DNA of 50,358 nucleotides. Source: Catajapyx aquilonaris (lineage: Eukaryota). Below the pieces are notes generated by a model that was not told the origin of the DNA, did no database searches, and worked only from the letters and a program-made list of their open reading frames with translations. The translations under genes and the position numbers were made by a program. The stretch's first letter is position 1, and each line of letters starts with the position of its first letter. Of this stretch, positions 6,278-38,725 are shown in pieces. The stretch is from NCBI GenBank assembly GCA_000934665.2, contig JYFJ02002815.1, forward strand, positions 1 to 50,358, read 5' to 3'.

Positions 6278-9200
6278 ATGTCTTGGAGCAATGGCGACGA
6301 GGTGTTTGTCGGTGAGGGTCAGCTGGTGGTCACTCCGACCAAGAGCATCAAGAAGGGGGCCACCCATCAGCATCTCAACGCCCTCCGAGGTCAGATGGAC
6401 CAGAGTGACTGTATAGAAGGGTAGGCTTTGAGTATATTTAAAAGTCACTGAAATACTGACCTGGTCCAGCAGTGGTCAACTCTGTTAGAATCAAACGCAA
6501 TTACATGACAAAAAATTAATGAGAATGTTATGTAGTGGGCCAGAATCAGACCAAGTCCAGTTTCTTCAGTGTCGTGTAAATGTCCCAATTTTAACCTTGC
6601 TTTTCGCGTTTTGATCAGGGATGGTGATGCTTTGTTGAAGAAGGCCTGGCTCAAGATGCGTCGAGACAGTGAGTCGACGTCTTTGGCCACGTTTGAAGGT
6701 TTCCTGGGAGGGGTCCTGGAGGAGCTGAGGGAGGTTCGTTGGGAACAGGACAGCTTGCAAAAGGCAGTCCTGGCCAAGACCGAGGCTCAAGAAGAGCAGT
6801 TGTCCAGGCTTTTCCAAGAGGTAGAAACCACGTTCCAGGAAGAAAGGGAGAGGATACTTAGAGAGGTCGGTACATCTTAATGTTTCCCCAATCATTAAGT
6901 ACCTTGCAATTAATTAAGTGGAAACGGGTGTTGTAGGGTCCTACACGACCTATAGACGCAGATCAGCATAGTTGTTTTGAAACTACAGGTGCAACATGTG
7001 TTTTCAAATAAAAATTTTATACACTCAACAAGTAGCAGAACTGACAAACATATTTTTTTGAATTGCACGTGACATGCAAAATGTTGAAATAGTAAATGTT
7101 TTTATCTACAAAATAATTTAAGCAAAACGTGTGTGCGCAATCATAATCAGAATATCAAATGGCATGTACTGCCTTTCCCCTACAACAAAAAAAATGATAA
7201 TGTGCCTGGGCGGAAGAGTGTGGCGATAAGATAAGCTCAGGAATTCTGTTTAAGTGTTACTCGTGACTGGATGGTGTTGCAGGAACGCAGGCATGAGCGT
7301 GTCCTGCGACTGGAGGTGGAGAAGGAGTTGTCGCACAAGGATTCCCAGCTGCAGGACATACTTCAGATGCAGCAGGAACTGGCCGAGAACCTGAAGCAGC
7401 TGAACGCCACCGAGGCCAAGATTAAGGAGGAGAACCTGAAGCTGAGGAAAGAGAAGGAAGACCTGGAGCAAAAAGTGGAGATCCAGCAGTCTGAAGTGAG
7501 CAGCTTGCAAGCAGCCCTGCAGAGAATACACCATGACGCCAAAGGAGATAGAAGACAAAGGGCTCTAGAGGTCCTCAGAGCATCTGAAGGGGTTGCTCTA
7601 GAGAGGGAGAGTATGTGTTGACCTGATCGAAACAATAGCACTTGGACTTAACTCTTGTTTTTTGGGCAGGTCTGGTGAAGCAGCTAGGACTGCTAAGGGC
7701 CATCAATGCGCAGCTAATGGACGAGAAGGATGTGCAGAAGGAGATGATGGCACACAACTACCAGAGGAACTCGGGCAGCTTTTCTTCTATGAAGGATATG
7801 GAGGAAAGGAGGATCAGCCAAATGTCTTCGGCTTCAGATTATTGCAGCATGTCCAGGTAAATATAGCAGCTTTCTTTCAACCAATTCAGTTAGAGATGAG
7901 TAATGATCTTCCCACTTTTTATGGCCAGAATCAGGATTATTAACTCTACAATAATTAAAGGTTACTAGGCTTGATGATCATGCACAACCTTACTGCTGGT
8001 ATACAGTACTATATGCTATAACTTACAATATATTGCCCTAAATTACTTTTTATGCATTGAGTGCATATCCAGCATTGCAACGATGTAGTGTAATGTGTAT
8101 GGTACATTTTTACAGCTGTATCTAGTATTACTCGTATTTGAAGGTTTAAAGAAAACTATTTTTAAACTCATTACTACAGAATGAGAATTTGATAATTTTT
8201 TGAAAACTTGAAATGTTGAAATTATGGATATGGTGTGGATCTATAAGTGGCAATAATTTAATTGCAGCCAAGCTCAAGGACTAGCAAGCCCAGCCAACGA
8301 GGTTCAACACCATTACAGCACTGATGACGAAGAAGTGATTACCAGCTGCACCTCTCATGACACCGCAGTCAAAACGGCTGTAATTGCTACTAACAATCAT
8401 TCAAGCAGCTTACTTGAAGAGCTCAAGACCAGTGCCAGTGAATGCGATAATGCCAAGGGTTGCACGGATGAGGTCTCTCTCTCTGGCTGCTCTGCACCAC
8501 TGCTGGTACAGAAGGGGGTGTTTCCTATCACGAGTCAGTCAGAAGAAGGGTCAGCCAGCTCCTCTGATGCAGACATCAGTGACGTTAACACACCTGATGT
8601 GTATGACACTGCTGGACTTAGGTACACTAAACTAACCTAGTGTTGTTACAGATTTTAATCAAAATATTGCAATATTATAAGCTACTCATTTTGCAGAAAT
8701 CTGCAGGCAATATCAGTAATACCGGTACTCTTCCAGAAAAGTGCAAATGGAATTATGCATGAAGTAGTAATCCAAAGGTGGTGTCTTAAACAGTTACTTT
8801 TGCACAGTTACTGCTAATTGTTATCAAATATATTAGCTGCTAATATAATGGCAAACTTAATCATCCATTCCAGATCTGACTTGTGAACTCCCAAATAGTT
8901 CTAATAACCTAATATTACAGATAACCAATGAGAGTAGCTGTTTTAAAATAAGCATAATCAGACGAGTATTTTGTATCACCCTGTCTATTCATAGACACTT
9001 ATTGCTCTGTATTTTTCTGTAATTTCAATTTCACTAATTTTTGGGAAGGATTTTTATTGAATTTTCCTTCTCATTATGAAGTGGTTTTATGAGCTTGCGT
9101 TTATTTAGCAAGCAGGCCATTATACCCATTATGGGCATTAGAGAAGAATGGCACATTATTAGCACTGCGGTCTATTGTATTATTTTTAGTGTGCTGTGAA

Positions 9201-10563
9201 ATGTGTCAACACTTTGTCCAAAGGTGACCATGCAAATTGCATAACCCAATTTTTCAGGGTAAGAAGACGGACCTCCATCCGAAGGGCATCCATGGTATCA
9301 CCAACTATGTCAATGACAAGAGCCCATGGTCGCAACAGTCTGTCCCGAGATTCGATTCCGTGTCCCCAACGAGTATTCAAGATTGTGGTGATTGGTGACT
9401 CTAGTGTTGGGAAAAGCTCGTTTATCCACAGGTTTTGCCAGGGACACTTCCAACCCTCCTTCACGGCTACGTTAGGTGTTGACTTCCACATGAAGACTGT
9501 TATGGTTGGAGACAGGACAGTGTGTCTACAGATATGGGACACTGCCGGACAGGAAAGGTACCACAGCATCACAGCACAGTACTACAGGAAAGCAGATGGT
9601 GTCCTTGTTGTTTATGATGTCACATCAGAAGAGTCATTTAAGCACATCAGGCACTGGATATCTTGTGTTAAGGTTAGGATAATATGTTGTACAGTACTTA
9701 TATGCGATCATATTCTAGTTAAAATTGATCAGTGTAGAACTGTAGAGGAGGTAAGTATTCCACAAAAATATAGTTTTACATAAATGACATGTATATGCAA
9801 GACTGTATTCACACTGTATTGTTATTTCTTGTTATTTGAAAAATTGAAAAGAAAATGTTGGTTAACTTTAGCAAAACTTAACCTTATTGAAAGATGATCC
9901 ATAATTCATTATTATGAAACTTCCATAGTTCAATGAGTGTTGTACTCAACGGTGTCTTTCCATAATTTATTGATGATAGTGACTTTATTTGACAGGACGG
10001 TGCAGGAGACAGCGTGTTGGTACTGGTTGTTGGTAATAAGGCCGATCAATCTGGAGCTCGGGTAGTGTCTGAACTAGAGGCTAGCAAGGTAGCTGAGGTA
10101 TGTGGTAGCCAAATATTAACATGGCCTTTTTACAAATTTGCACATGTGGCAAAAATTTTAGGCGCAATCAAATATTTAATCTGGGTGTTCAAAATGGCAA
10201 TGGCATAAAGTCGCAACATTAATTAGCCTACTGCCAGTTGCATCATTGCAGAATAAAAGCAAATATAGAACATACCAGTGCATGAAGTCAACATGAATAT
10301 CTGCAGTCACAACAGCTTTTATGAATATATTGCCCTTTTATTATGCCTGTTGCCTGTCATATACTTGCATGATTATTATTATGCCATTTTTCTTGTAGCA
10401 CGAAGGAGTACTTTTTATGGAAGCAAGTGCAAAAACTGGCAAATGTGTGAACGAGGCCTTCCAAATAGTGGCGTCACTTCTGAGGGAAAGGCAAGACGTG
10501 GACATGGCCAAGGCATCAGTCCTTTCTGGAGTCCATCCAAGGCCCAAAAAGAGTTGCTGCTGA
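6278..10563 (+). CDS. Large Rab GTPase of the RASEF(Rab45)/CRACR2A(Rab46)/Rab44 class: coiled-coil + C-terminal Rab domain, about 646 aa, 8 coding exons, no EF-hand found
   Basis: Phase-consistent GT-AG exons 6278-6420, 6619-6865, 7283-7610, 7670-7856, 8268-8621, 9258-9672, 9996-10097, 10399-10563 (1941 nt). Rab motifs: G1 GDSSVGKS, G2 TLGVDF, G3 WDTAGQE, G4 GNKAD, G5 EASAK, and a KKSCC* prenylation tail. Coiled-coil segments 'WLKMRRDSE..FEGFLGGVLEEL..LFQEVE' and 'ERESLVKQLGLLRAINAQLMDEKD' resemble the RASEF/CRACR2A family. Confidence 0.88.
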
Positions 10564-10822
10564 TCTGGACAACTGCATGTGTCAAATGTACAAAGGGTAA
10601 CCCAAAGTTTAGACAATCTAGTTTTTATTGAAAAGTCTGTATAACATAAGAGAACACATTTTTTCACATTTGACCCAAATGCAACAATAATAATGCAATT
10701 TTTTGTCAATAGTAAACATAGTGTTCTAGTACAATATTTTAACAAATGCAACAAAAGACAAACACATATGTTAGCATTTTCCATATAACCTGCTAAAAAA
10801 TTTAATATTTTTCAAACTTAAA

Positions 10823-14061: not shown

Positions 14062-17000
14062 TCATATCAGGTCGCTAAAATCTGGAACTAAACATTTGAG
14101 CAATTAGTGTGCTACTTACACAGATGGAATTACCAGTGCAAAGAGCATAATATTATTCTCTCTATGCATATGAGCATTTCAGTTAGTCTCACTCACTTTC
14201 TTCGATGGGCAGCACAGTGTCGTCGATAGGTAAGTGTTGCAGCTCTTCAGATTGCTGTTCCTGATGGAGCTGGTCCGACATGGGTAAATTTTTGCATATG
14301 GTCAATAAATTCTCCGTGTTTATGGGAGTTTGGGTCTCCTCCATAAACTGGTCGTACAAGGGAATATTGAGATAGTTGTGTTCCATTGCTTCCTGACATT
14401 GCTGGAGGGTCACGCCTTGATTTGAGGTGGCAGCACCGAGATTTTCAAGGTTCAAGTTCACGGTATTTGCACCTGTAATCATGCAGAGGAAAGTATGACA
14501 AAACTTGTACAGTATATATGTACCGTACTTATTTTACGCTTACCAACTGGTGCCGTAATGTGTTCGCTGCTTTCGGATGTTGCCGTGTAAGGAAGCCCAG
14601 GCCCAAGGAAAATAGTGGGTGCCACACGCGAAGGTCCAGGGGCAGAATCAAATGAGCCAGTGATCTGAGGTTGTGACAAGACATTCTGGAGGTTTTGCCA
14701 GTGATATAAGCCTCTGGTCGCAGTACGCATTGGACGCTTGCGAGACACTGGATCAATAGTCATATTATGCAAGGATAATTATAATCAAGTACATCCAACT
14801 TATTTATGACACCATAATTATGTTGTGAAGTACTTACGTTCATCAGGTAAGTATCTGAAAGGCCTTCCTTCACTCCTTTCTCCGTCGCTCGGCCGATACA
14901 ATTCCATTAACACCATTTTCTCCTCAGTCAGGTTTTGGTCATGATAGGGTGGTGTTCTGGAAATTAGGGAGGTTTTAAAGTAGTGAAAAGGGTGTTGCAG
15001 TTGATATCTCAATAGAGAATAGCCTTGGTGGCCTAGAAATTGCTTAATTTGTCCACGCAAATACGACTTCACATGACATGACGGAAAAAACATTAAAAAA
15101 CTAAATAATTTGGCTAATGAAGCACCTGGTCTTGTAGATCATTGATTTACTGTAGAGATGATTACATATTTTCAGTGGGCCTCGCCCCGTAGGCCTCTAC
15201 GGATATTCGAGAAAATATTAATGTAAGTGTCAACAACTTTTCACAAAGGATCTCTGCCAGGATTGATTTTGCAATGACCCACGAAAATAGTCTACAATGT
15301 TTCAGCTATATTATAGGGCTAATTCTAATACAGTAATTATAATTGGTTTTACCTATATACCTGCTGATAATAGGGAAACTATTCAATGAGATTTCAGCTG
15401 CAATTGACTTCCCTCAGCAGCAAATATTCTACAAAAAATTACCATTTGCATGACATTTATCTTATATTTTTAAAATCCCAAAACTTTCGAATTTTAAATT
15501 TAGACCAGGTCTTTCACTGTGCCAGGTATATACCTGAAGACAATGGCTGCCTGCCTGTGCACTCCCAACGTCATGATTCCTTCTGCTCTCCATACTTCGG
15601 TTCCATCAATTACTTCATAAAATCTCACCTGAATGTCCTCTGGAAAAGAATTTAGCCAAGTCAAACAACTGCACTATGGAATTAACATTAACTTGAGAAG
15701 TCACAATAATTGAACTAACTCTGGATGACTTTTTCTACTAGAATGCACATCTCCTCATCACCAATGCACTTTCCGCATGTTTTGCTTAGGTAGGTAATGT
15801 TGAGCTCCTCTGTAAAATCATTAGCTCTAGGTAAAATTGTTAAAAGTTTCGGGGTTTAGAGAAACATTTCATATGCAGTATATAATATGTTTAACTAAAT
15901 TGTGCTATAGAGAGAAACACTCACTCGAATTGAATACAGCACTGGATATGACTGGCTCGCACAGCTCAACCCCTTCCTCTGAAAATGCCTGGAACTTGAG
16001 GTGGACACAATGTTTCACATCAGGCTTCGTCTTGCCTTCGTCAGCTGCTGGCTTCTTTGCTTTACTGGCTTTCTTTCCAGAACACTGTTGCTTCTTCCCT
16101 GGAAGCTGTTTCTTAGCGTCATCCTTTGGTTGAACTTCTATTATGACACATATCCACTGGAAGACGGCCGTGTAATTGTTGGATTCTTTCACCAGCTTCT
16201 CTAAGGGGTGCCCGTCTTCTTTAGGTGTTGTGTCAAGTTGGTGATGGTGAGGTTGGCCATCGACAGTGCACAGACTGACGCGAAGGATGGCAGTGTCTCT
16301 GTAGTGGTTGAGCTGTAATATCTAAACGCATTAGGGGAGAGTACATCTCGTGGCATATGTGAAGTGTATGGGCGAAAGGGCACATGACTGTGATCTCAAC
16401 TTATTTCATATTCATAAAAGTGTAGGTTTATTCTACATATTGGCCATTGAACTAAGAAGTTCACTGTGGCGGCCAGCAAGTAGGCCTACTATAGTAAAGC
16501 AAAAGATTATTGCCCTGATATCACTTGAAATAATCACATCTCCGCGGGGCGCCAGGAAGTGTGATTTTGCAAGCGAAGTGGCGGACAGAGACACCGTATC
16601 TTGATGTTTATAAGTCCATATATGACATTATAATTGTAATCATTACACTGGTCAGGAAAACTAATTTCCAAATCCAACGATAACCCGCCCGTAAAGTAGA
16701 CTATAGTGAGGATAGAGTGAACACGGAAAATCGGAAGTAGCGGGTCACCGGAAGTTGATCATGACACCTATTTATAGGTCACGCTTAATCCGAATATGAA
16801 ACCCGTTTGTCGCTATCACTTCCGGTTTAGGCCCTGATACCTGTCCACAGACGGACGGACAGACAGAGAATTCTATGACACTTTTTTTCGATGGTGAGAA
16901 AAAGTCTAAAATCGTAAAAATGAACCTGGGACAGTCATCAAAACAATAATGTATACAGGCCAGGTGCGATTTGTAAAAAGTTTCAAATGACGTCACGTTT

Positions 17001-17562
17001 GTTGTTATTGTGACTTCCTTTGTGATGGAAACAATGGTGACGTCATTTAGATTATATATTTTTTCAACATCGTATAAGCGGCCCGCCCTCACTTCGATCT
17101 TACGTCATCGTATTGTTTACAAATATATTCCTAATCAACAAAAATCTGCAAAGCGCACCCCTGGAACCTCACACACTTTTCAAAGTTTCCATAGAGATGC
17201 CCTCACACAACAATAGGAGTAAACAGTGTCAACAAAAAAATAACAATGCTTTACTCTTATTGTTGTGTGAGGGCAAATCCGTGGGAACATGAAAAGTGTG
17301 AGGTTCCAAGGGGTACGTTCGGAAGATTTCTAGGAGTTAATGAACAAAACGATGGCCTAAGGTCTAAGTAAGGGCGGGCTGACTTTTTAAAATACTGTAC
17401 TGTACCTACCCTAACAGTCGGGTGCTTGACCTTACGACCCTTCTTCGGCCCATCTGCCAGAAGGTATCCGTGTGTACCTTTGACCAGTTCAGACTCATAC
17501 CTGAACCTATGATATTTCCTAGGCTGCTCCAGGATCTCGAGGTGAACTTCTGAAGTGTCCAT
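14062..17562 (-). CDS. Relish: Relish-type NF-kB transcription factor (Rel homology domain + IPT dimerisation domain + NLS + acidic C-terminus), about 451 aa, no ankyrin repeats
   Basis: Phase-consistent exons (minus) 17562-17410, 16312-15925, 15809-15720, 15639-15534, 14956-14838, 14747-14544, 14472-14197, 14081-14062 (1356 nt). Motifs: LEILEQP-RFRYESE-GTHG (Relish has RFRYKSEMHGTHG), PHHHQL, LKFQAF..CEPVISSAVFN, ELNITYLSKTCG..DEEMCILVEKV, DIQVRFYE..VW..VHRQAAIVFRTPPY, ELYRPSDGERS..PFRYLP, then the NLS RKRP. The last short exon is the least certain. Orthologue versus paralogue of Relish is unresolved. Confidence 0.88.
16680..16900. mobile_element. Possible DINE-1/HINE-like (Helentron-related) non-autonomous element fragment in the Relish intron
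   Basis: Contains the (GACG/GACA)n run cagacggacggacagacag next to aatccgaatatgaaaaccc..acttccgg blocks. Resemblance only. Confidence 0.35.
17076..17386. repeat. Long imperfect inverted repeat (fold-back MITE-like), arms about 150 bp, in the first coding intron of the Relish-like gene
   Basis: ccgccctcactt..ctggaacctcacacacttttca..gccctcacacaacaataggagtaaa pairs with tttactcttattgttgtgtgagggc..tgaaaagtgtgaggttccaa..aagtaagggcggg. Confidence 0.75.
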
Positions 17563-18553
17563 TTGCGACACTGGAATCAAAACGGAACAATAATATTATA
17601 TCATTATATCGGACGTCACGCGCCAGGTTGACGCCTCTCACTTCACTCTAGTGCAAAGCAATAAGTCTTCTGCACATCCTGATCGTGTAATCACAGTCAT
17701 CCTGTATCAATATGATATACTGCAAATCCTAAGATTGCAGTGCTCATTATCAGCATCTCTTTCATTGCTGCAATAACATAAAACAGCAGGAAGCGAATAA
17801 CGATGATAACAACTTGTGGAAATGTAAATACAAGATAAGGTATATTTTACAAGTTTTGACATTGTTAGACGCGTCTATGATGATTGTGTAAGTAACACTA
17901 CGGGTGTACTTTAATAGGAACGCCCAGCCCATGTGAGGACCCTGCACCATCATCATCCAGCCCCCATACAATAATTATTACAATCCAATATAGCAAATAC
18001 AATATCAATGGCAAAATCCAACCCCTCCTCAGGCGTTTAATTGTCATAAAGGATTATTTTGTAAGCAGTTCTTTGCCTCAATATGTTAACTGCTTAAAAA
18101 TAAACAGCTTTGTGCAAATTGCTAACCACTAGGTTCAATTAAATTATTGGAACATTTTATACTGTTCGGTTCCATTCAGTGGCGTCACACTTCGAGTGCC
18201 AATAACATAATTAACCGGTTTAGCAACGCAATTTATAAAAGCAGTTTCAACATGCGCAAATTGAACTTACCGGCACAGAGCATTTAATACGTTCTTGAAA
18301 AATCTGCAAGCGGCAATCCTGTGACGTCACCAGCAATCGTGCATCTGAAGGACAAGGCCGGGCGAGGCTGTAAGATCCCTTCTAATTAAGTAGGCCTACC
18401 TGCACTCTGATGATGATGATGATGACGACGACGATTAAAAACATTAAAGTAACTAATGATATCATTTCTGCATTACTAAGCTTGAAAGTGACGTCATTGC
18501 CAACATTTTAAATCATTATTCTTAGTGTAAATTTTAATGGGAATAATACTCAC

Positions 18554-18620
18554 CAATTTATCCTCGCTCCACAAAGACACCGGATCAAGTGTAGGTGTAG
18601 TTCCGGATAGGTCGAGTTAT
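18554..18620 (-). other. Probable non-coding first exon of the Relish-like gene (5' end approximate)
   Basis: Strong donor AATTG|gtgagt on the minus strand at 18554/18553. Splicing to the acceptor at 17570 places an in-frame TAA upstream of ATG 17562. Confidence 0.5.
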
Positions 18621-18800
18621 ATACCAGGGGAAGAACCGTGTGTCCAGCCCTTTGATTGGCCTACTAGGTGTGTCGGGGAATTCCCGTGAACAAAAATAGA
18701 CGTCAGCAGACATGTCACGTGACCTGTGATATCAAGCTGGTTCATATCCTTCCCGCCACTGATTTCAGCGCCACTTGAAATGAAACTGGTGCTGCCATCT
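18620..18800. promoter_or_regulatory. Probable bidirectional promoter between the Relish-like gene and the zinc-finger gene
   Basis: CpG-containing segment with ATTGG/CCAAT (about 18655), the kB site GGGGAATTCCC (18675-18685), CRE-like GACGTCA (about 18700) and the palindromic E-box GTCACGTGAC (18714-18723). It is flanked by outward-facing splice donors at 18554 (-) and 18899/19023 (+). Confidence 0.6.
18675..18685. promoter_or_regulatory. NF-kB (kB) binding site GGGGAATTCCC
   Basis: Exact match to the GGGRNWYYCC consensus, with the palindromic core GGGAATTCCC typical of p50/Relish-class homodimer sites. Confidence 0.65.
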
Positions 18801-19987
18801 ACCGGCCAACTAGTTGACTACTGGATAGGAACGCTGAAACCGGAACGATGAACCGGAATACGAACCGGAGATTCTAATTGAGGGAACGACCGAACCGGGT
18901 AAAAGTGTCTTCATATTCATTCCATTTCGCATTTTTTGACTGAAATTTTTGCAGGAATTCGCACACAGCCTGGTACTGCACACCGACAACACACTCTACG
19001 TACTGTGGCTGTCAACCAGATGGTAAGACCCAGTGTAATGTACATGCAATACCCAAACAGTGCAAACATGTCCCACGGAGCACTTAGAAATAATTTATTA
19101 TTTGCAATTTTCAAAGTGGTGTCTAGCCCGTAATGACAGCGAAGCATTCGTATTCAGTTGATGTCAGGCAAGAAACCGCAAATGATCAGCCAGTCGTACT
19201 CCTGGGCCGTTGGAAAATATTTCTCGCAGGAATTGCGCACGTATCGTACATGCTCGTATCACGCAACATGCCTTCTGGTGCAGCCGACTGATGTAATTGC
19301 AACTCTTTCATAAGTGAAAAACACTCAACGCTGCCACCTGCAATGAATTCGGTACAGAACGGCAGTTTTCCATGCATCGAAAACTGTAACGTTGCAGACA
19401 GAGATTCATTTCGTATATCTTGGCAAAAATTAATTTGAAAGTTTGCAGAACCACTCTCTTCATCTGTCAGTATGTTCGCCTAATGAACATACGAAAACGC
19501 CCGGTGTCATCACACGAAATTTTCAACAGCCTGGATTTCAGAGGCCAGGAGTTAAATAATTAATTATTTAGTACAGCCTTGTCCATCCAGAACATTTAAA
19601 GTGATGAAGGCATTATTTAGCGGCTAGGGATTGTGTGTGGGGACACAATGCCGCACTTCTTGGATTTATCTTTTATTCAGGTGATAGTTCTGGTAGTCTG
19701 GTTAGTCATTACCTTTATGCCATCTGCACCTTCAACAGCGCAGTTGTTTGATGGAATATTCCATTTGTGGTGAAAAATTCGTCCAACAAATTAAATATTT
19801 TTGCTCCGGTTATGTTGAATGGCAGGTGGACAAGTGGACTTTTCTTTTTAAAATTTACAATAGGGGCCTGTTATTCTGGAGCACAGTTTGAGAACCTTGG
19901 ACTGTGACTTACACTGATTGTGAGTGTCAAGGGTATGTCCATAACTGACGAATTACACATAAATAAAAGGATATTATCTTCTTTCAG

Positions 19988-20234
19988 ATTAGGGTCACTC
20001 TACGTGCAGTGAGACTCTTGACATCTGAGGCCCAAGGAGTCAGTCACCTTCAGTGAGTGGTCCATCGTGTTCAATTTCTGGCAAACTGATAGGACTGCGG
20101 ACTTGGCAGACACCTCCTCAGGCAAGCCACATTGGCCACCTGTAGTGTCACCTACAAGGTCTGCCTACGAAGGCAACTGGACTTGGACCAATTTCTAGAA
20201 TACGCTTGTACTTTGTACCTGCTTGGTGAGAAGG
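19988..20234 (+). other. Probable 5' UTR exon of the zinc-finger gene
   Basis: Pyrimidine tract + acceptor tctctttcag| at 19987 and donor AAGG|gtaagc at 20234. Exon-like composition, no convincing ORF. Confidence 0.45.
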
Positions 20235-20272
20235 GTAAGCTAGTAGCAGGAAACAATGGCGTGATCAAATTA

Positions 20273-20463
20273 AGGCCGGTATCCACGTACGAGAATCTCG
20301 CATACGAGGGCTTACGAGGAGCCAACTGCGCATGCCCAGATACGAGGAAAGAGAGAAAAAGTAGAAAATTTTATACTTTTTCCCATTTTCTCGTATCTGG
20401 GCATGCGCAGTTGGCTCCTCGCAAGCCCTCGTATGCGAGATTCTCGTACGTGGATACCGGCCT
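20273..20463. mobile_element. Palindromic PIF/Harbinger (Tourist)-like MITE
   Basis: Arms of about 85 bp starting AGGCCGGTATCCACGTACGAGAATCTCGCATACGAG, with a TTA TSD on both sides. A second copy is at 28325-28504. Confidence 0.8.
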
Positions 20464-20868
20464 TTACTCAAGGTCCTGTCACACCATATAGCCTCAGTTA
20501 ATCCTTTTTGTTCTCCCTGCGTGAGGCTTGTCACATTGCACACTACTTATTTAATTCAAAATTATTCAAACTGTTGAGTTAGCACTGTACTCCCAGTTAT
20601 GTGGGTGTGGATTATTATTATCCATGCATCACAAAAAAAGAAAAAAAAAATTACAAGAGAATGTTATTAATACACTGTACTGCCGATTATCCAGGTTTGG
20701 ATTATCCATGTTTCGGATGATCCGTGCATGGCTAAAACAAAGAAAAATCCTTTAAAATGTCAATTTTTCTCCCAAATGAAGAAATACTGTATAACACTTT
20801 TTCTAGAAGACAAACTAAAAATCTCTAGTAAGTTTTACTAGTTTGATTTAAAAGCCTTATTTAAAGTA

Positions 20869-21472
20869 CAGTCAAACTTCTATAAGTCAAATCTCAATGG
20901 GACCGGGGAAAAACTTCGAGTTATAGAAGATTTGAGTTAGAGAAGTTTGGAATTTTTTAAGCACTTAACTCTTTAAGGAAGAAGCCTACCTTTATATTCA
21001 GCGACGAAAGTTATTCAAAACTTAAAAATAATTGTCACTATCACTATTACAATGTTCCTCGTAGTTTTGGTGTAAAAAAAATCACTGATATGGACATTTT
21101 GCCTACTCTCAGATTCAATGATTCAATTGTCACAATCGAGTCAAACACTTCTTTCGGTGCGTCTGGTAGACGGAGATCAGGAAATTGAGCCTTTCTGTAC
21201 ATGTGGCCTACCCTCGACCCTTCGGCTGGGAAATTATAAAATTTTCCGTACTTGCCAACATGAACTTAAACTTAGGGAGACTGAAAATCCATTGATATCC
21301 CATCGTAAGGCCCTGCCAGCACTTCGAGTTATGGAGAACTGCGCGTTATAGAAATTCGAGTTAGGGAAGTTTATTTCCTATTATTTTGCATTGTGACCAA
21401 CCAAGCTCATAATTTTATTCGACTTATAGAGAACTTCGACTTAGGGAAGTTTGACTTAAAGAAGTTTTACTG
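20869..21472. mobile_element. pogo/Tc1-type MITE
   Basis: TA|CAGTCAAACTTC...GAAGTTTTACTG|TA, with repeated subterminal ttcga(g/c)ttatagaa / ttcga(g/c)ttaggga motifs at both ends. Confidence 0.75.
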
Positions 21473-21744
21473 TAGTAGTATACAGTACATGTTCATTATT
21501 AACCTGTGAATATCTCATTTTTACAGTATCGAGGACCATTTTCGGATTATCCGTGTTTTCCGATTATCCGGCAACATCAGTGCATTTATTAGCATGGATA
21601 ACACTAATACGCAAGGTTTTGTTGTTCTGAAATGGAAATGCCTATCTGAACGGATTTTCTCTGCAGATTACGAAAATGACATTGAAAATCTCCTACTATG
21701 TCAAGTTTTCCAGTTATACAGGATGTGTCATAAATTCTCGTTGG

Positions 21745-22029
21745 GATGTCCACATGTCCAGCGCATGACGTGGATGGAGTTGACCTTCAGCAACGTCCTT
21801 ACACCACATTGTTGTGGCACTCATCCTTGTTATGACCACCAAGTTTCATTCTGATTGCATCATTCCACTGGGAGTTATGCACCTCAGAAGGTGTAAAAGT
21901 GTGGGTCGGAGGTGCATTTATCGGTGAACTTGGTGGTCGTAACAAGGATGAGTCTCACAACAATGTGGTGTAAAGACATTGCTGTAGGTCAACTCCATCC
22001 ACATCACACGTTGTACATGTGGACATACC
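21745..22029. repeat. Inverted repeat / MITE-like hairpin, arms about 100 bp
   Basis: gtccacatgt..ggatggagttgacct..tacaccacattgttgtg..actcatccttgttatgaccaccaagtt is the reverse complement of 21925-22028. Confidence 0.7.
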
Positions 22030-22057
22030 CGCGGGTCATTCCATGTGAAATCAGCCA

Positions 22058-22790
22058 CAGGGTGTCCCTAAATGATTGTCAACATTTGAAAGTTGTTTAA
22101 TTTCTATTAGTTGCGGTGTGCAATGACAAGACAGACATAGAACGAAAGAGCACATTTGGGAGATTTTATTGCACACACCACAAGTGCTTAATATGAGCAC
22201 CTTTCGTCACACGACATGATAATCCAATTCTCTACACAGGCCAGCATGTCTGGTGTGATTGATTCCACAGCAGCAACAATCCTGCGTTTCAACTCACACA
22301 GGCTGGTAGGTAGCCGTGGTACGAAGACCTGGTCCTTTACATATACCCCCAGAGGAAAAAGTCACATGGGGTGAGGTCGGGAGACCTTGGCGGCCACTGG
22401 AGAAAAACCAGATCTTGCTGACCGGCATGTCCGATCCGCCGATCCTTGCCCTTGCAAAGGCATTCCATCGTCTGAAACTTCTGGAACCACCATTGAATTA
22501 TTGTAGGGAGGGGTGTAATGTCGTCCGTACTGTCGCCGGAAGGTCTGCTGAACAGTAACTACCGAACCAAGCTATGGAAACTGCAGGACACGGAACGTTT
22601 TCTGTTCGGGAGACACCATTTTGTGGAGTGGCCCTGTGTGCCTCGCGGCAAAGTGCGGAACCAACTTTTCTGTGTGCAATAAAAACTCCCAAATGTGGTC
22701 TTTCGTTCTATGTATGTCTTGTCATTGCACACCGCATCTAATAGAAGTTAAGCAACTTTCAAAAGTTGACAATCATTTAGGGACACCCTG
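22058..22790 (-). mobile_element. Internally deleted Tc1/mariner (DD37D-like) transposon
   Basis: TIRs of about 55 bp, CAGGGTGTCCCTAAATGATTGTCAAC. Minus-strand transposase remnants: N-terminal MVSPEQKTFRVLQF..SVVTVQQTFRRQYG..QWWFQKFQ..CLCKGK, then WPPRSPDLTPCDFFLWG, and C-terminal ..VTKGAHI. Confidence 0.85.
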
Positions 22791-23468
22791 TATATTTGAT
22801 GGTTGCTCGACCATCTAGTAAATTTTTAATATTTATATTATTTTAAATACGGATGTTGCGCCTCGGGTGTTTCACCGCGGGACGTCATAAAAGTGTAAAG
22901 CCCAAAGTTTTTTTTTTTCACAATTTTTAACTAAGCACTAGTAGGAGTATCCATGGCCAAAATTTCAAATTTTTGCGTGGCCCCCACCTTTGAGATATTT
23001 GACTTTGAAATCAGCAAATTTCGAACTTTTTCTAATTTTGGACCGAAAAATCGGCCAGAAGGGCTTGCAAACCCGGATTTATTTCACCAAGGCTGGATAC
23101 CCTTCCTGTCAGAGTCCTTGGAAAAAAATATTCCACCCTGGGATTTCAAGCCCTTTCGGTTTTACAGGCCTTTGAAATCTGTTTGGATAGACCTGATTCT
23201 TTCAAAACAACAGAAAAAAAAGTCAAAAAAAAATGCAGATCAGAGTAATCAGGAGTACAGTGTATTTCCACATGGGAATATCCTCCGTATCACAGTCAGT
23301 TTCATACGTAACTTTATGCACAATTTATGCTCGCTTGTAAGGTGCATGGAATGGGGCCTGGTCTCCATTCTGATTGGGGGTTGGAATGATGGAATCACAC
23401 TGGACTGGTTTCGCTTTTTCAGGGTGGTGCACAGTTGCAGAACCGAAAGCAGGTCCCCCTTCCCAACA

Positions 23469-26400
23469 ATGGACATGCTGTCTTGGGGGGTGTTCCCCTG
23501 CCCCTGCTGCCCAGGGAAAACTTTCAAGAGGAGGCTTGATCTGTTAGCGCACAACACCACCCATTCAAAGTGGGACAGTGTCAAGGTGGAGGTCAAGGAG
23601 AAGCCAGAAGAAGAGCCAGAGGTCACAGTCAGGTTCCACAAGGTTGGTTTTCCGGAATAAATTCAGCTCGTTTTTTTTATTGACTGCACCTGATAATAAT
23701 GGTGGTAGCCAAGTCATCACTTTTTCAATTTATACGCAAAGGTTTCTGCCATGCATATGCCTTTAATGCACACTACAGTATACTGATTAATGAAACTATT
23801 CAAAAAATGCGAAAATAGCTCGCCTGCAAATGAGTCTGGACCTAAAAATCTGTAATTCTCTTCTGTCGTCTCCATCTTGCCAAATACACCAGAAAAGTAA
23901 TGATTTTGTCCTTTTCGGCAAGTACAAAGGAGCATTACTGCATGACATCTTGGCCGTTTCTGTCTCACTGCCAACTGCTTGACGCAGGTGTAGGCTAGGG
24001 TGTAGTGTGCTGATGCATGCCTGGGAACCTGGGAAGGTAATGAATATGACTGGACGTTTTTAAAATCCGCATTTTTTGGTCAGCTATGATGCAATGAGTT
24101 GAAAATGGGCACTTGACGGGGTGAGATTGTGGCATTGTTTTTCCCCATTATTTCACTGATTTTTATGCATGACGGTGATGGGAAACGTTTCCTTGAAGAA
24201 GATCGGTCAGAAGCTTCGGCAGAAACCATGGTCAACATTTCTGTTACGATTAAAAAGTGGAAAATTGGATGGTGCCAAAGTGACCAGAAGAGGAACACTG
24301 CATCTAGCACCACTAGCCGAGGCGACTAGAGAGCGTATCGAATCTGACCGAACCGAAGAATAAGATCAACTTGGTTGGAGGAAGGGAAAAATTCATGTAA
24401 TTGCATTTTTTCATAATTTTGAGCCAATGACTCGGACTGATCATGTGTGTGACTTACAATGTGTTTTATCAAGATGAAGGAGTTCAGGGGTGTCCTTGAA
24501 GTGCCTGTAAACATCATTGTCATACCTTTCTTTTTAACAATATTAAAAAACAATTTTTTCTTTGTATTAAAAAATATATATATATATATATTTAAAATAT
24601 GTCGAGGATGTTCCTTTTTACAGGCAGACTGGAGAGAATGGAAAACTGCAAATCTCAAAAAATGTGGCACAATCTCACCCCATTTGATGGTAGTTCTGGT
24701 GAGCCTATGAAGGTGATTAGTGATGGACTGCTTCAAATGTGTCTTGGAGAACAAAGGTGGTTTCTTCCCCATCATGAGGTGATTAGTCAATAAAAATGCT
24801 AAGTTATGAATCAAGAGATGTTTACAGGCACTTCAAGGACACCTGTGTACTCCTTCATCTTGATAAAACACCATTGTTTATAGCCACACGCATAATCTGT
24901 CTGAGTCAATGGCTCATAATATTATGAAAAAATGCAATTACATTAATTTTTCCCTTTCTCCAACCAGTTTGATTTTCATGCACGTAAGCCATGTGATCTT
25001 TATTTTTTAGTTCACGTACTTCAGGTCAATGAAGTTCGACGCTCGTTTTCGTTTCCAAGGCGCTAGCTGTAGTAGGCTACTCCTTGCCCGTTCGCCTTGC
25101 TCACATCCAAGTTTCTACTACTTTTTTCATTGCAGAAATGTTAGCCCTGATTTCTGCCAAAGCTTCGGCCCGATTTTCACGTAACCTTTCCTTATCACTG
25201 TGACTCTTGAAAATCAGTGAAATAATATGGGGAAACTGGGAAAAACAGTGGCACAATCTCACCTCATCAACTGTACTTTTCTTTACTAATTACGCCATGT
25301 TTCAAAAGAATTGTTTCTTGTTTTTTTTTCGCATATTGAAGATGCTCATTTTTACAGGCAGACTGGTGGGAATGTGCCCATGATACGTTTCCCATTCATT
25401 TCAAGCATTTAAATAGGCTGGCATAATCTCACCCCACGTGATGGGATGAGATTTGGAGATTGTGAAACGGAAAAGAATTGATATCTCCCCTTGACAGCAT
25501 TTGCACTTGTAATCTGGTGCTCATAAGGTGTATCAATATAATTTTTTAAAATACCATAAGGATATGCTGAGGAAGGGAGGTTCGAGAATTGCATGGTGCT
25601 TACCAGCTGATGGTGGCATATGTAATCAGATACACCCTAACAGGGTTACTGGTTCTTTTCATCACATTTTAAATGACCGTGGTCCTATGCCAACAAGATG
25701 GCCTTTACCAATTTAGGATAGTAGGAAATTTCGCAGTTTTGCAACGGAAAATTAACATAATTATTCCGTTGTCTTCACTTATTACGCTGAAGAACTGAAC
25801 CTGTGAGCAAGACAATTAATTTTATCAGAGCTCAAGGACTTCAATTAATCTGAATATCTGGAAAAGTTGAGTATCACTGCTTTAAAGTATGATCGTGTGA
25901 GGTGCTTCCAAACCAAACTTCATTTATGGGAAGCACAAATGCAAAAAACAACAACAACAACAACAACAACAATTGTACTGACTGTAATTGCACATGTGAG
26001 ATGTCACTGTGCACAAAGACTTGAACCAAATTTAGGTGCTTTCTGCATAAAAATTATTGCAATGTTGATAACTGAATTTGAAAAGAGATTCCGTGATTTC
26101 AAATCGTATGAGAAAGATATTCAGCTGTTTCCTTAGCTCCATTCTTATGTAATGTCAGTCTGACAAGTAATAAAGTTCAGATGGAGTTGATTGTAATGCA
26201 AGTGTAACACTGCTCTCAGGAACAAGTACTTGGTAACAAGTACAAAGCTGTTGGATTTTCAGAATTTTACACATGTTTGCCTGACAAAGTCCCTAATATG
26301 AAGCAATTTGCTGTAAGGGGCCTTGCTATGTGTGGTAGCATGCGCTTGTGTGAGCAATAAATTATTTCCGATGATGAATGTGAACAGGACCACTAGAAAA

Positions 26401-29400
26401 TTCATGTTATCTAATGAACGTTTGTAATTTGTGATGAAAATGGATTCTATTCATCTGTTCAAGTCTGACAAGAAGGTTCTTTTCACTTGCAAGAAAAATC
26501 GAATTACCGGACCAAAAAAACAAACAAAAAAAACAAAGCGTAAAGAGACACTAGAGCCGTGGTTTCCAACCTGGGGGTCGCTAGCTTTGGTTCAACATAT
26601 TTTTTTTGCGATAAATGTGCAATAATGAATAATTAGATAATCAAAAATGGGTGAATACTGTGTGCGAGTTTCAGTTTTGAGCTATAATTAAACTACAGAA
26701 ATTTGGAAACTTTCGCCCTCATGCCTTCTCTATCATTCTGCAGAGACACCACTACCGAGCTCTCTATGAAACCAATCAAGGTGCACTTATATTTGAAGGA
26801 AAGCAGCTATGCAGGGGAAGCAGATGCAATGATTGAAAATGACTGTTAGCTGGCATATTTCGCAGATATGTTTGAGGAGCTGAATGTGTTCCAACACGTC
26901 TCTGCAAGGGGTCAAATCAAGCAACATTTTTTAATCACATAAAAAATAAGTGCATTTTAATTAAAACTCGAACTCTGGCTGGCAGAAAAAAGTGGAGCAA
27001 CGCTGAGTAACCCGAGTAACCAGTATTGTTGGAGGGGAAAATCGATTGTTACTTTCACCTCCAACAATATTGGTTACCTCACTCGGCGATGACTTTGCTC
27101 GTCAAATCGCTCACATGTAAACGGGGCTTTACCTTTGATCACAGAACTTGACCTAAGTGGTGGACCATCTTTTGCATTGTACAATGTTGTTCCACAATTT
27201 CCTCACATCCACTGGCTCCAATTAGGACTTATAATAATTCATATGAGAGGCTTACTGCCAATTTATTGTTGTTCACATTAAGCTTGACTTAGGTGTCACA
27301 AAATAAGAAGATATATAATCATGCAATACAAATAATAGGAATTCGTTTTCATTTGTATGGAATGATAATTATGTTGGTACTTCAAGGAATGATTCAGTGA
27401 AAGACTGGGCTGTTGACCTGTGTTACAGTGGTTGGCTCTAAATTGCCTGTTGGTTGACCTTCATGTATAATAGGTTAGGTTAAGTTAGACACACATCACG
27501 TGGTAGTATTTTGCACTGGTTGCTCATTAATTGCTCATTATATTCTGTCAATTTCTCCTCTTCTCATTGCAGATATTGGACCCCTTCATCCGCCTGTACC
27601 AGCTTCTCTACTGTGACCATTGCAATGGTGCATTTGCCACAAAGAGGAACCTGGTGAGGCACATGCTGAAGAAACACATCAATCCTGAGCCTCAGGTAAT
27701 ACAATAAATCTATGTACAGAATTGATATTGTAGGTAGGGACTAGGGTTTCCTACATAGAGAGGTTTGCATTAATAAGATAGTAATATACAGTATATTTTT
27801 CACAAGAAATCATTGATATATTATTTTGCCATATCAAAATGTTGATGGTATCACTAATTTTTGGGGATCCACATTCTTGGACATGTGACCAGTAGAATGC
27901 CACGTACATTATTTTGGTTAGGGTTACACATGTGACGAAAACTCATTACGGTGCAAATTTGCATTTTCGTCACCTTCCTCTTTCTATTGATATACAGGGT
28001 GGTCGGAAAGTAACTCTATTAGAAACATGTAAGAACTTTGTCAAATATTGCTCAATTGTCATGAAGCAAGTTTTATTTTGTAACATGAAATGGGAGAATT
28101 TGTCTGCAAACTTAAAATTTCACATAGGAACGAGTGTTTTCCGTCAATTTCTGTAGGCGATTCGGTATGCATGCTACAGACTTATATGCACGTAATCCTG
28201 CAGTACTTTTCCCAGCACATCTCGAATGCTCTCTCAAGTTGATCTAAATTTTGCAGTTTGGTGCGGCACACGCGCTCCTTTGACCAGGCCAGGAAGTGGC
28301 GAGAGCAACTCTCATGCACGCTAAAGGCCGGTATCCACTGACGAGATTCTCGCATGCGAGGAGCCGCGAGGAGCCAACTGCGCATGCCCAGATACGAGGA
28401 AGTTGAAAATGTTCAACTTTTTCCCATTTCCTCGTATCTGGGCATGCGCAGTTGGCTCCTCGTGGCTCCTCGTATGCGAGAATCTCGTACGTGGATACCG
28501 GCCTTACGGCGTTGCACCATTTTGACTGCTTGCATGACTGATCCTTCCATCTAGTGGGCAGCCGTTTTAATTCTCCCATTTCAAGTTACTAAATAAAACT
28601 TGTTTCATGAAAATGGAGCAATATTTGACGAAGTTATTACATGTTTCTAATAGGGAGTTACTTTCCGACCACCCTGTACATGGTTATTGGGTTTTGACCA
28701 CTTCCAATAACTGAGAAAAAAATTCTTAAAAAAATGACTCATTTTCAGCCCTTTCCCAAATTTCGCGATTTTCCTCCTCCCCACAGTATTACGCAATATG
28801 GCTGAAACTTGATATTTTGGGTTATACTTTTTTCCTCGATGGTTGATCGAGCAACACTATGTCCAATTACTCCTAGATATTTTGAAGAATTTGGTATTTT
28901 GACTGCCCCAAGGTCAAAAACGAAGTTCAGACAGAATGAAGGAATGACCTAAGGAACATAGAAATAGCAAGGAATTCCCATGGTCAAAAAAGGTGTTACA
29001 GAGTAGTTTTGCCCATGTAAGCATACATCGAATATTCTAATAAGTAGATGGCAAAACTTGACGATAAAGAGACACATGTTCATCAATACTGCATGTACTG
29101 TACCAAATTTCATGAGAATTGAAGAAGGGAAAAGGTGGGCCACTGAATATGGATTACCTGAATAAATAACATTGTGTAGCAAGCATATAGAGTTCAACAC
29201 TCCTTTCCAATGCATTTATGAGATGTCATATATTTCAGGGAAAAGGTGCTGAAGAGAAAATGAAGAATGGAGTACAGCAAGACACGAAGAAAAGACGACT
29301 CTTCAGGGGGATTTGCAAGAAGACATGTAGTTCCGAGAGTAATTTGAAGAGTCACATAGGAATCCATTCTGGCGAGAACCGGTTGACCTGCCAAGTGTGC

Positions 29401-30309
29401 AGCAAAAAGTTTTGTCATGCTTCTGCTGTGGGACGCCACATGCTAATCCACAGAGGGGAGAAGCCATTTAGCTGTGATGTTTGCAAAAGAAAGTTTACTG
29501 AGAAACGCACTCTAAAAGATCACAAGATGATTCATGAAGGAGTGAAGCCATACACTTGCCTAATTTGCAACAAAAAGTTTAGTCAAGCTTCTGCTGTGGG
29601 ACGCCACATGCTAATCCACAGAGGGGAGAAGCCATTTAGCTGTGATGTTTGCAAAAGAAAGTTTACTCAGAAAGGCACTCTAAAACATCACCAGATGATT
29701 CATGAAGGAGTGAAGCCATACAGTTGCCTAATCTGCAAAAAAAAGTTTCGAGGGTCTGGAGGTTTTAATAGCCATATGAGGGTTCACACAGGGGAGAAGC
29801 CATACAGTTGCCTAATTTGTGAGAGAAAATTTACTGAGTCAGGACAATTGAACAAACATATGAAGGTTCACACTGGAGAAAAGCCCTTCTGTTGCCAATT
29901 TTGCAAGAAAAAATTTGCTGAGGCAGGAGGTTTGAATAGGCATATGCGGATTCACACAGGAGAAAAACCATTCAGTTGCCAAATTTGCAGCAAAAAGTTT
30001 GGTCAGTCAACATTATTGAATATTCATATGAGGGTTCACACAGGGGAAAAGCCATTCAGGTGCATAATTTGCAAGAGGATGTTTAGGACCACACAATGTC
30101 TGTTGGTACACATGAGAAGTCACACAGGCGAGACGCTACATGGTTGCCAAGTTTGTAAGAAAAGATTTATTCGTTTGGGACACTTACGAAGGCATATGAG
30201 AATTCACACTGGCGAGAAACCCTACTTTTGCGAGATTTGCATGGAAAGGTTCAGACACTCAGGGAGTTTGAAAAGGCATCATATTAGAAAACACAAAGGA
30301 GAAAAGTGA
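23469..30309 (+). CDS. C2H2 zinc-finger protein, about 455 aa: two isolated N-terminal fingers plus a tandem array of 11 intact and 1 degenerate fingers
   Basis: Phase-0 exons 23469-23642 (FPCPCCPGKTFKRRLDLLAHNTTH, VKVEVKEKP), 27573-27695 (YCDHCNGAFATKRNLVRHMLKKH) and 29239-30309 (CxxC..F..L..HxxxH fingers with TGEKP-type linkers). The final exon is certain; the start codon and upstream exon linkage are inferred. Confidence 0.85.
24112..25272. mobile_element. About 1.15 kb fold-back element (long inverted arms) in the zinc-finger gene intron
   Basis: 24366-24530 is the reverse complement of 24817-24975, and 24112-24270 of 25104-25270. The motif ggcacaatctcacccc recurs. Confidence 0.7.
25790..26470 (+). 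pseudogene. Decayed hAT transposase fragment (SPIN/GTF2IRD2-like)
   Basis: Frame-shifted remnants: KTINFIRAQGL, YDRVRCFQTKLHLWEAQM, LITEFEKRFRDF..DIQLF, QMELI, LAMCGSMRLCEQ..MMNVNRT..LSNERL (hAT C-terminal dimerisation-like). A further hAT-like fragment LAYFADMFEELN lies at about 26850. Confidence 0.7.
27995..28676 (-). mobile_element. Tc1/mariner deletion derivative with a nested Harbinger-like MITE
   Basis: TA|CAGGGTGGTCGGAAAGTAACT.. TIRs of about 105 bp ..AGTTACTTTCCGACCACCCTG|TA. Transposase C-terminal remnant FLAWSKERVCRTKLQNLDQLERAFEMCW. Confidence 0.8.
28325..28504. mobile_element. Second copy of the palindromic Harbinger-like MITE
   Basis: Same AGGCCGGTATCCAC termini and GAGGAGCCAACTGCGCATGCCCAGATACGAG arms as 20273-20463. 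Confidence 0.8.
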
Positions 30310-36600: not shown

Positions 36601-38176
36601 AATGCAGGTAACTTGTTTACTGCAAGTACTTGCAGGCGGGCGTTCATTTTGCAGCCCTAAAGTGTATAGCCTACTTAACAATCGGTAACAATGCGAGCCC
36701 TTGGCGACCACGTAAACAAACTCGCGTATGCATGGACAACACATGGGGATTCGACATGTCTACGCTTCTGCGGCCGTGCGGCCGCAAACATGTAGCAATG
36801 GACACAAAAATTGCACCAAAAAATAGGACATGATCTGGCGCAGGGCACCTTCGTCATGGTTTTCCCCGATTAACGGTGTGTTTCGCTACAATAAATAAAA
36901 TTCCCTCAAAAATGCGCCTGACGTATTTTTGCTAATGCGCCCCCTTAAGACAAAAAAAAGTTTATTCCACGTGTGACTTGAAAATTCAGGAAATTCAGGA
37001 AATTTCATCACCGAGGCAGGGTGGTGTTGATTGACACAAACTACAGTAGTTTGTGAAAGTATGGAAATTGTGTGACCTGCCTGAGTTGGCCTTACATTTG
37101 CAACAGAAATGTAGGCAAAGTTTTTAGAACCAATCACACAAAATGGGTTCCTATCTTCTCCTTTTGCAAACCTCCTTCTTGGACAACTGCTAAAACCTAG
37201 AATTACATCCTGTACTCATATTCCAAACTTGCTCTTGTTTTATTATTTAAGATGAGTTTTATTACCATTTGTGGTTATTATTAATTTGTAATGGTTATTA
37301 TTGAGGTGTTAATTACTTAGGAAATGCAGCAAGGACAGGATTTCCCATCCACTTATTAAGACAATTAATTTTGTTCTTTGTTTTTACACCTACAGTTGCC
37401 AGTCCCTTAGAGAAGTTCGACTTGATGGGAATTCTAGCTACAATTGCAAGTATCCTCGCCACATCCTGGATACATTTTCCACCTGCCCCAAACTGAAGAA
37501 GTTTATAGTGGACACACACTACTTGTCCGGTGTGCTGCCCATAGACGAACTCATTGTGAGGAAATGGCCAAAGCTCACTGATGTTGAATTTGACTTTTTT
37601 CCGTCAACTCAAAATGCAATGACCTTGAAGATTGTGATTGACACAGTAGGAGGCCAGCTGCGTCGACTAAAAGTAGGTCGCATGGGTCATACAGACAATG
37701 CCGGGCATGACCCATACCTTCCCATTGGACAGTGCCACCAGTTGGAAGAGCTCATTATTTGTAAGGGATATGAGGTGAAGAAGACTACCCTTGTAGAGGT
37801 GATTCGCAACCTGCCACACCTGCGCAGACTGGAACTGGGCCGGGTGTATCCTGATGGCACTGGGAAGTTCCTGGGCCTTTTTTCCCTGGCACAAGCAGCC
37901 AGTCGCCTAGAGAGCCTTAAGTTGCACATGTGCAATGTTCTGACAGACCGCTGCATGTCGGCCATAGCCTCCAGGTGCTTGGAGCTGACTCATGTGACTT
38001 TCTCCAAGTGTTCAGGTTTTACCTACACTGGCTTTTACAAGGTGATCGCTCAATGCAAAAAATTGAAGACTGTTAGCGTCCAAGGGTGCAGTAATATCTT
38101 GATTGATCGAAATTGTCGTAAGAAGGTGAAAGAGCTCAATCCAAATGTTGTGTTAACATCTACAGAACAGTGTTAA
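33696..38176 (+). CDS. F-box/leucine-rich repeat protein (FBXL-like), copy 1, about 425 aa
   Basis: Exons 33696-33830, 33964-34325, 37396-38176 (1278 nt, phases consistent). F-box LPTEIWLHIFSFLP..AALVCKEWHEMA, followed by AMN1/FBXL-type LRRs (MPNLKIVRL, LPGLEVLDL, CPKLKKFIV, CHQLEELII, LPHLRRLEL, CLELTHVTFSKC, CKKLKTVSVQGC). Confidence 0.88.
34747..36660. mobile_element. About 1.9 kb non-autonomous TIR transposon (Harbinger- or hAT-like) in an intron of F-box copy 1
   Basis: Perfect 28-bp TIR TTAGGGCTGCAAAATGAACGCCCGCCTG, subterminal ttgcag repeats, and an ATAACC-rich interior. Absent at the equivalent site of copy 2 (about 44400). The TSD is not clean. Confidence 0.75.
35191..35381. mobile_element. 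Small Tc1/mariner MITE nested in the 1.9 kb element
   Basis: TIR CA(C/G)GGTGTTCGAAATTCGTGG, internally palindromic, with TA on the right flank. Confidence 0.65.
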
Positions 38177-38725
38177 GAGGCACCAGATATTTGAGAACAA
38201 TGCTGACCGGAATGAGGGCATCAGTGTAGAAAAATGATATGAGTATGTCTCATAATGCACTTCAGGCTGGGTGCACCATTGTGGGTTTGACAACCAAGAT
38301 GGTGCACCCAGCCCGAAGTGCATTATAAGAGATACTCTTATCATTTTTTCAACATATATTGGAGGATGGTGCAACACTTTCATATTATGAAAGTGCCAAC
38401 CTCCAATATATTTTCACACCCAAGGTGGCCATGCACAGGCAACAGAATGCAGTCAGGTACTTCCTTACCTGCCCAACAATGGTTTGTCATACTGTCGCTT
38501 GTACCAGCCTCTTTAAACTTCGCCTGTAATGCTTTTCTGAATGCGTACATTGGCTGATGTGTTGTTCATCTTGTGTTTGGGATGGCAACCCTGGGAAATC
38601 AAGACGTTCGCAGAATTTGAGATTGGAACACTGAGCTTGTGCAACATTAATGTGGTTTTGGGTTCCAAATCTCTCGAGTTTTTATTGAAACCAGGATGGT
38701 GCAATCTTATCTTAAAACTTTACCA

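Follow-up and report, generated by a model that had tools for sequence, protein, structure and literature searches.

A kB site in the likely inherited promoter of an ankyrin-less Relish duplicate, on a CpG island with a candidate divergent transcript, in Catajapyx aquilonaris

The window analysed in this study is a whole contig (G000:C1392; 50,358 nucleotides) of the 286-Mb genome of Catajapyx aquilonaris. Its minus strand carries a Relish-like gene of nine coding exons (14062–18283; 460 amino acids, stop in exon 9), and its plus strand carries a C2H2 zinc-finger gene of three coding exons (23469–30309; 448–455 amino acids, 13 fingers) with an open frame. A CpG-retaining island (18000–19400) has an observed/expected CpG ratio of 0.97 and CpG-depleted DNA on either side; the ratio is 0.53 in the Rel gene body and 0.31–0.35 in the zinc-finger exons, and this pattern is as would be expected for an unmethylated promoter island. 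An old dispersed repeat (19103–19880) separates the island from the zinc-finger exons. Tail-to-tail with the Relish-like gene is a gene for a Rab-family GTPase (6500–10630, plus strand; Pfam Ras), which has a coiled-coil region upstream. Two related palindromic MITE-like inserts are present in the zinc-finger region (20265–20460 and 28325–28500), and tandem F-box/LRR-like genes occupy 33900–45660 and 49800–50358 (plus strand), with a third copy beginning at the contig end. An Rfam search of 17500–23500 gave no match.

The preliminary description of this DNA regarded the minus-strand gene as a Relish without its inhibitory half, and the gene structure agrees with this. The genome contains three Rel loci. 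The gene on contig C2004 is Dorsal-like, with Gambif1 as its best PDB match; the gene on contig C351 is p50/p52-like with ankyrin repeats, and its best matches are p50/p52; the third is the window gene, whose Rel exon had p52/p100 as non-significant top matches. The stop codon of the window gene (14062–14064) lies in an exon that matches the pre-ankyrin exon of C351, before the point at which C351 runs on into its ankyrin repeats. C-terminal ankyrin repeats, by which a class I Rel protein is recognised, are absent from the window protein, and a genome search with the C351 ankyrin exon gave no match in the window among the best 150 of 641 candidates. The search for Cactus/IkB with this exon gave four non-self matches at three loci, none recognisable as IkB, among the best 150 of 641 candidates, and the protein search with it returned generic ankyrin proteins. 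No Rel match was obtained from PDB with the large Rel exon of the window, and word-indexed protein searches with the window and C351 Rel exons gave nothing at E <= 0.001.

A tree was built with 33 of 41 Relish-like matches, eight having been dropped (five for short coverage and three that had no BLAST hit at 1e-10). The window and C351 proteins were sisters at 100/100 and grouped with Relish/p50/p52. Their end branches were 1.24 and 0.29, respectively, an approximately four-fold difference in a tree whose program flags long rows as unsure. Over 281 codons, the two Rel domains share 57% identity, with dN of 0.33 and dS of about 2.2, and this comparison points to purifying selection on the Rel domain of the copy. 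Intron positions and phases correspond between the two genes. We take the window gene to be a lineage-specific partial duplicate of the full, ankyrin-bearing Relish on C351.

For the first coding exon of the C351 gene there are two candidates: one lies upstream (ATG 58531), and the other is internal, its ATG (61202) standing 13 nt before a donor. The first coding exon of the copy (18271–18344, minus strand; ATG 18283, 13 nt before donor 18270) is homologous to the internal exon. The ATG-to-donor distance and the phase are the same, a 13-mer containing TGACGTCA is common to both, and their local alignment has a score of 35, which was reached by 1 of 5000 random stretches. From this alignment and the matching distance and phase, we conclude that the duplicate copies the internal, short-isoform start. 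The region around this start (G000:C351:60900–61220) holds two kB sites together with Inr-like and CRE-like elements, in addition to the internal first coding exon; it has no TATA at the corresponding place, and it is a candidate start of an inducible short isoform that would keep the ankyrin repeats. The open reading frames upstream of the C351 Relish are on the same strand, with no zinc-finger frame among them, so the parent gene does not have the head-to-head layout of the window. On C2004, the promoter of the Dorsal-like gene was sought and not located.

All motifs named in the preliminary description were found at their places: the kB 11-mer GGGGAATTCCC (18675–18685), which is the sole copy within the window; a CCAAT box on the minus strand (18659–18655), forward with respect to the Relish-like gene; a CRE-like GACGTCA on the plus strand (18699–18705); and the palindromic E-box GTCACGTGAC (18714–18723). 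The opposed splice donors, described as about 350 bp apart, correspond to GT donor-like sites at 18553 (minus strand) and 18899 (plus strand), 346 bp from each other. The sequence GGGAATTCCC is termed a consensus NF-kB site in the part of 10.1101/2025.01.21.634164 that was available, and the window site fits the GGGRNWYYCC consensus above chance. In the genome, the exact 11-mer occurs 274 times versus 90 for the reversed control (approximately 3-fold), which corresponds to some 3e-4 occurrences in every 345 bp; many of these matches are full 12-bp palindromes, and some may derive from repeats. Chance levels for at least one match per 345 bp, taken from 233 kb of zinc-finger-flanking DNA, were 0.03 for the degenerate kB pattern, 0.003 for GTCACGTGAC, 0.09 for GACGTCA and 0.57 for CCAAT. 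By these levels, the kB site and the E-box are above chance, and CCAAT and GACGTCA by themselves are not. Degenerate GGGRNWYYCC gave 8 matches in the window versus 4.1 expected, and the enrichment is not significant (9 of 100 shuffles reached this count). Because kB sites are expected at the promoters of NF-kB genes, the site itself is ordinary.

What gives the site a direction is its surroundings. On the minus strand, the kB site (18685–18675) is followed by CCAAT (18659–18655), TATATAA (18623–18617), an Inr-like element (18594–18588) and the donor at 18553; the TATA-like element had been overlooked in the preliminary description. With the Inr consensus and the TATA-to-start spacing that we assume here, transcription would begin close to 18592, at a distance of 31 nt from the TATA. 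Counted from this putative start, the kB site lies at about −93 to −83, CCAAT at −67, TATA at −31 and the Inr-like element at +1. This canonical spacing points one way, and the kB site looks like the proximal element of a TATA promoter that faces the minus strand and drives the ankyrin-less Relish-like gene. On the plus side, TATA or Inr was looked for before the first donor, and neither was found. The preliminary description had placed the kB site in a promoter common to both genes; the part that concerns the Relish-like gene agrees with this spacing, whereas co-induction of the zinc-finger gene is not supported.

The first exons on this strand are less firm. Splice sites were scored with matrices from 19 sites each (2 of the 19 donors used for training proved to be mis-set), and donors 18553 and 18899 had moderate scores of 6.8 and 6.3, most training sites having 5.4–9.9. 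A candidate first exon of the Relish-like gene, non-coding, would cover 18554–18592, and the acceptor for its intron (first exon base 18344) scores below 3, compared with 8.6–15.5 for the training acceptors. With a moderate donor and a weak acceptor, the 18553 intron is uncertain, and the real start could sit nearer 18370, which would place the kB site approximately 300 bp upstream. Two minus-strand donors score higher, 18399 (9.4) and 18270 (9.5), and homology supports just the second of them. Donors 18553 and 18899 are candidates for the first introns of two transcripts. A GAT microsatellite (18408–18435) lies inside the candidate first intron and adjoins a second TGACGTCA at 18489.

A composite kB–CCAAT–TATA pattern, designed from the 18675 site, had 3 matches in the genome and 1 in the control. 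One of the other two matches had no evident gene downstream, and the other was within an oppositely oriented gene, presumably peptidase-like from its motif; both are uninformative, and a genome-wide kB–CCAAT–TATA grammar was unsupported. Linked GATA sites matter at Drosophila immune promoters, according to the accessible part of PMC12922788; no GATA site was found beside the window kB site.

Was the site inherited with the internal first exon? In 40 kb of C351, 4 of 6 kB matches are found upstream of its two first exons at distances of up to about 1 kb, and two sites precede the internal exon at approximately −70 and −160 from the Inr. In the internal promoter of C351, the kB site that is proximal agrees with the window site in 11 of 12 bases in the same orientation. 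Around these two sites, 13 of 25 flanking bases are identical (p 0.003), with p 0.14 for 15 nt and p 0.07 for 45 nt; anchored global alignments gave p 0.18 and 0.31, local alignments p 0.27 and 0.11, and the whole promoter p 0.07. The homology of the flanks is marginal, so the kB site may have re-arisen instead of being inherited. As synonymous sites are near saturation (dS about 2.2), the shared elements would imply either constraint or re-evolution. Considering the directional context together with a copied internal exon that had a kB-bearing promoter, we believe that the site is most likely part of an inherited Relish promoter.

The same marginal flanks can be read in another way, in which the kB site is due to chance or vestigial and the island serves as a housekeeping promoter under the control of E-box, CRE, CCAAT, ETS-like and CTCF elements. 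Such a reading could also draw on the degenerate kB pattern being found in 3% of 345-bp stretches and on the site having been picked by a reader who knew the gene. However, the exact 11-mer occurs at a far lower rate and is over-represented in the genome, as given above, and kB sites stand before both first exons of the parent gene. We consider a chance or vestigial site very improbable.

Which protein would act on the site was judged from the recognition loop of the copy (17500–17520, minus strand). Of the loop, RFRY-x-x-E and HG are preserved, and the copy also retains the RKR nuclear signal. After RFRY the loop has a Glu, which changes the charge, and before GTHG it has one extra residue; these features occur in none of the 33 Relish-like loops compared. 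With its DNA-recognition loop altered in this way, the copy seems a less likely driver of the promoter than the parent Relish. The preliminary description had proposed a kB feedback loop through which the copy would activate itself, and we do not follow it in this point, as the genome holds a full ankyrin-bearing Relish that would be a more natural activator. Under true autoregulation, the copy itself would bind the site, whether to form a positive loop or to act, like p50, as a repressor closing its own promoter after induction. The retained loop residues and nuclear signal and the purifying selection on the Rel domain are in line with this, and ankyrin-less jellyfish NF-kB has been described in 10.1101/2025.01.21.634164, as far as its accessible text goes, to bind consensus kB with no reporter activation. 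Against it stand the altered loop and the approximately four-fold longer branch of the copy, and a loop that has no signal-dependent step needs another trigger. We regard autoregulation as unlikely, and regulation by the parent Relish or another Rel dimer is the reading carried forward here.

The zinc-finger gene belongs to a large family (at least 150 matches, being the best 150 of 203 candidates). Translation in the family starts in the exon that matches 23423 onward, and the window ATG (23469) is 4.5 kb from the kB region. The ATG at 19020 was rejected as the zinc-finger start, as it is out of frame if donor 19023 is joined to the 23423 exon. Upstream DNA was compared for 40 paralogs, chosen for high score and upstream room, and a conserved module of approximately 145 bp, which usually lies 250–400 bp ahead of the ATG, was present in 18 of the 40 stretches (E < 0.001). 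No match to the module was found anywhere in the window or in the other 22 stretches (E < 0.001). The module may be either a promoter or part of a mobile unit; insertions have displaced it in several copies, and many copies are in clusters or on short contigs. About where paralogs carry the module, the window has a young repeat arm (22850–23178), up to 91% identical to other copies. As this zinc-finger copy has no family module, it is possible that it borrows the CpG island of the Relish copy.

On the plus strand, a candidate non-coding exon (18955–19022; acceptor 11.3, donor 19023 8.1) follows a 56-nt candidate intron from donor 18899. Among random 400-bp windows, 11% hold an exon-like pair of equal quality, and 1.6% do so when the upstream short intron is included. 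An acceptor-like site near 19230 was rejected, as it lies within the repeat, and the CpG depletion of the repeat at 19510–19850 was uninformative, six other copies having ratios of 0.33–0.66. The single-copy DNA at 19900–20250 is CpG-depleted (0.32). From the 1.6% level of the splice set and this depleted single-copy DNA, a plus-strand transcript that runs from the island and reaches the zinc-finger exons seems plausible. Two divergent start sites less than 1 kb apart would be candidates from the motifs and splice signals, and they would have the CpG island in common.

Co-induction of the zinc-finger gene by the kB site had been proposed on the basis of this layout. In its full form, the proposal is that the island is an immune promoter that works in both directions and whose kB site induces both genes, the zinc-finger copy having lost its own promoter and been captured through divergent transcription from the island of the Relish copy. 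The family module missing from the window and present in 18 of 40 paralog stretches would fit such a capture, as would the intact, CpG-depleted zinc-finger frame (0.31–0.35), the depleted single-copy stretch at 0.32 and the splice set at the 1.6% chance level; the kB site is palindromic and lies approximately 150–220 bp from the likely plus-strand start. However, 22 of the 40 paralog stretches are likewise without the module, so its absence is not special, and the 5' candidate exons of the window are shared by none of the paralogs compared. A kB site is near 2 of the 18 paralog modules, which is about the chance level (TCACGTGA is near 3 of 18). The distance to the start codon, the frame of the 19020 ATG and the lack of TATA or Inr before the first plus-strand donor also leave the proposed co-induction unsupported. 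A CTCF-type motif, moreover, intervenes between the kB site and the plus-strand exons. Taking both sides together, we think a co-inducing bidirectional promoter improbable, and we retain the one-way Relish promoter as the preferred reading.

This CTCF-type motif (18791–18805, minus strand) had been overlooked in the preliminary description. The pattern used for it was a CTCF pattern that was relaxed at position 3 after the site was seen. It matches only once in the window, at 18791–18805. In the genome it matches 376 times versus 33 for the reversed control, an 11-fold enrichment that is stronger than that of the kB 11-mer; a core-motif match and genome enrichment were therefore both found, with one position relaxed. 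When one mismatch was allowed, 30 of 100 window shuffles yielded a match. Compared with the human consensus as quoted in the accessible part of PMC6746451, the site agrees in 13 of 14 positions, with one mismatch. Local clusters of CTCF-type matches were observed elsewhere in the genome (C130:65302–65500 and C242:124691–124787).

According to the part of PMC3483549 available to us, 28% of the genes of Drosophila are arranged head-to-head at distances of up to 1 kb, such pairs fall into correlated and uncorrelated groups, close pairs that bear an insulator are mostly uncorrelated, and a similar CTCF result is cited for human pairs; this second, uncorrelated peak also speaks against co-induction. 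The window resembles such insulator-separated pairs of Drosophila BEAF-32 and human CTCF in having an architectural-protein motif between close divergent units. Unlike in those pairs, the window has the motif alone, and both the plus-strand start and the link to the zinc-finger gene are putative. We speculated that the zinc-finger unit may be screened from the kB site by the CTCF-type element.

The components of this locus have been reported in other systems. For example, ChIP peaks of NF-kB have been found at the internal promoter that serves the short variants of human NFKB2 (PMC4430024, accessible part), and kB sites at the internal first exon of a p100/Relish-class gene are likewise present in C351, which has this layout and of which the window copy would be a remnant. 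The human promoter has NF-kB occupancy, whereas the internal-promoter unit of the window is a separate ankyrin-less paralog with a putative Rel-binding site. A Rel homology domain with a nuclear signal and no inhibitory tail is also found in Anopheles Rel2-S (PMC12459809), in chelicerate models (PMC4833078) and in jellyfish NF-kB (10.1101/2025.01.21.634164), each as described in the available text. Rel2-S differs in being a splice form of one gene, its protein being reported there as undetected in fat body (PMC12459809); the chelicerate ankyrin-less Relish models may be annotation errors, as their own authors state (PMC4833078); and the jellyfish NF-kB binds separate IkB-like proteins, by which inhibition in trans has been documented (10.1101/2025.01.21.634164). 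The preliminary description supposed that a Relish lacking its inhibitory half could be controlled mainly at transcription; inhibition in trans, as in the jellyfish, may also act on the window copy. Unlike all three, the window gene is a diverged duplicate that stands alongside an intact full Relish. Relish copies and ankyrin-less models are known from other arthropods (PMC4833078, in part). In the accessible parts of the literature, including PMC9496462, PMC6563256, PMC12557518 and PMC2491644, we found no paper that directly describes a kB site in the promoter of an insect Relish gene; this coverage is partial and includes few subscription papers.

In this study, we believed, with somewhat more confidence than doubt, that the full Relish or another Rel dimer induces a copy with an inherited promoter in a feed-forward manner, and that the zinc-finger unit shares the island and is screened. 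A partial duplication of the full Relish would have carried along the first exon of the internal, short-isoform start, very probably together with the kB-bearing promoter of that exon. When immune signalling sets in, binding of the kB site by the full Relish or by another Rel dimer would raise the transcription of the copy, so that regulation would be mainly feed-forward and not self-feedback. The plus-strand unit, which is probably the zinc-finger gene, would start on the same CpG island, and with the CTCF-type screening no strong co-induction is predicted. Both start sites, the Rel binding, the induction and the insulation are what we infer here.

A bolder reading can be drawn from the same elements. 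The copy might be an escaped inducible short Relish isoform, a tail-less second-wave NF-kB under transcription-only control whose remodelled loop is aimed at different sites, and a promoterless zinc-finger gene might have been captured by the island into the immune response, with CTCF tuning and not blocking it. We hold this to be very unlikely, and keep to the feed-forward induction of the copy by the full Relish or another Rel dimer.

The regulation proposed for this locus is ordinary and its origin is interesting, the ingredients being already known from NFKB2, Rel2-S and arthropod Relish copies. The useful part is the reconstructed history and not the kB site itself. A duplication that kept the internal Relish first exon and ended before the ankyrin repeats would be a natural test of whether a cleavage-independent, transcription-gated Relish can work in arthropods, and the locus would also be a compact test of whether two genes on one CpG island are decoupled by a CTCF site.
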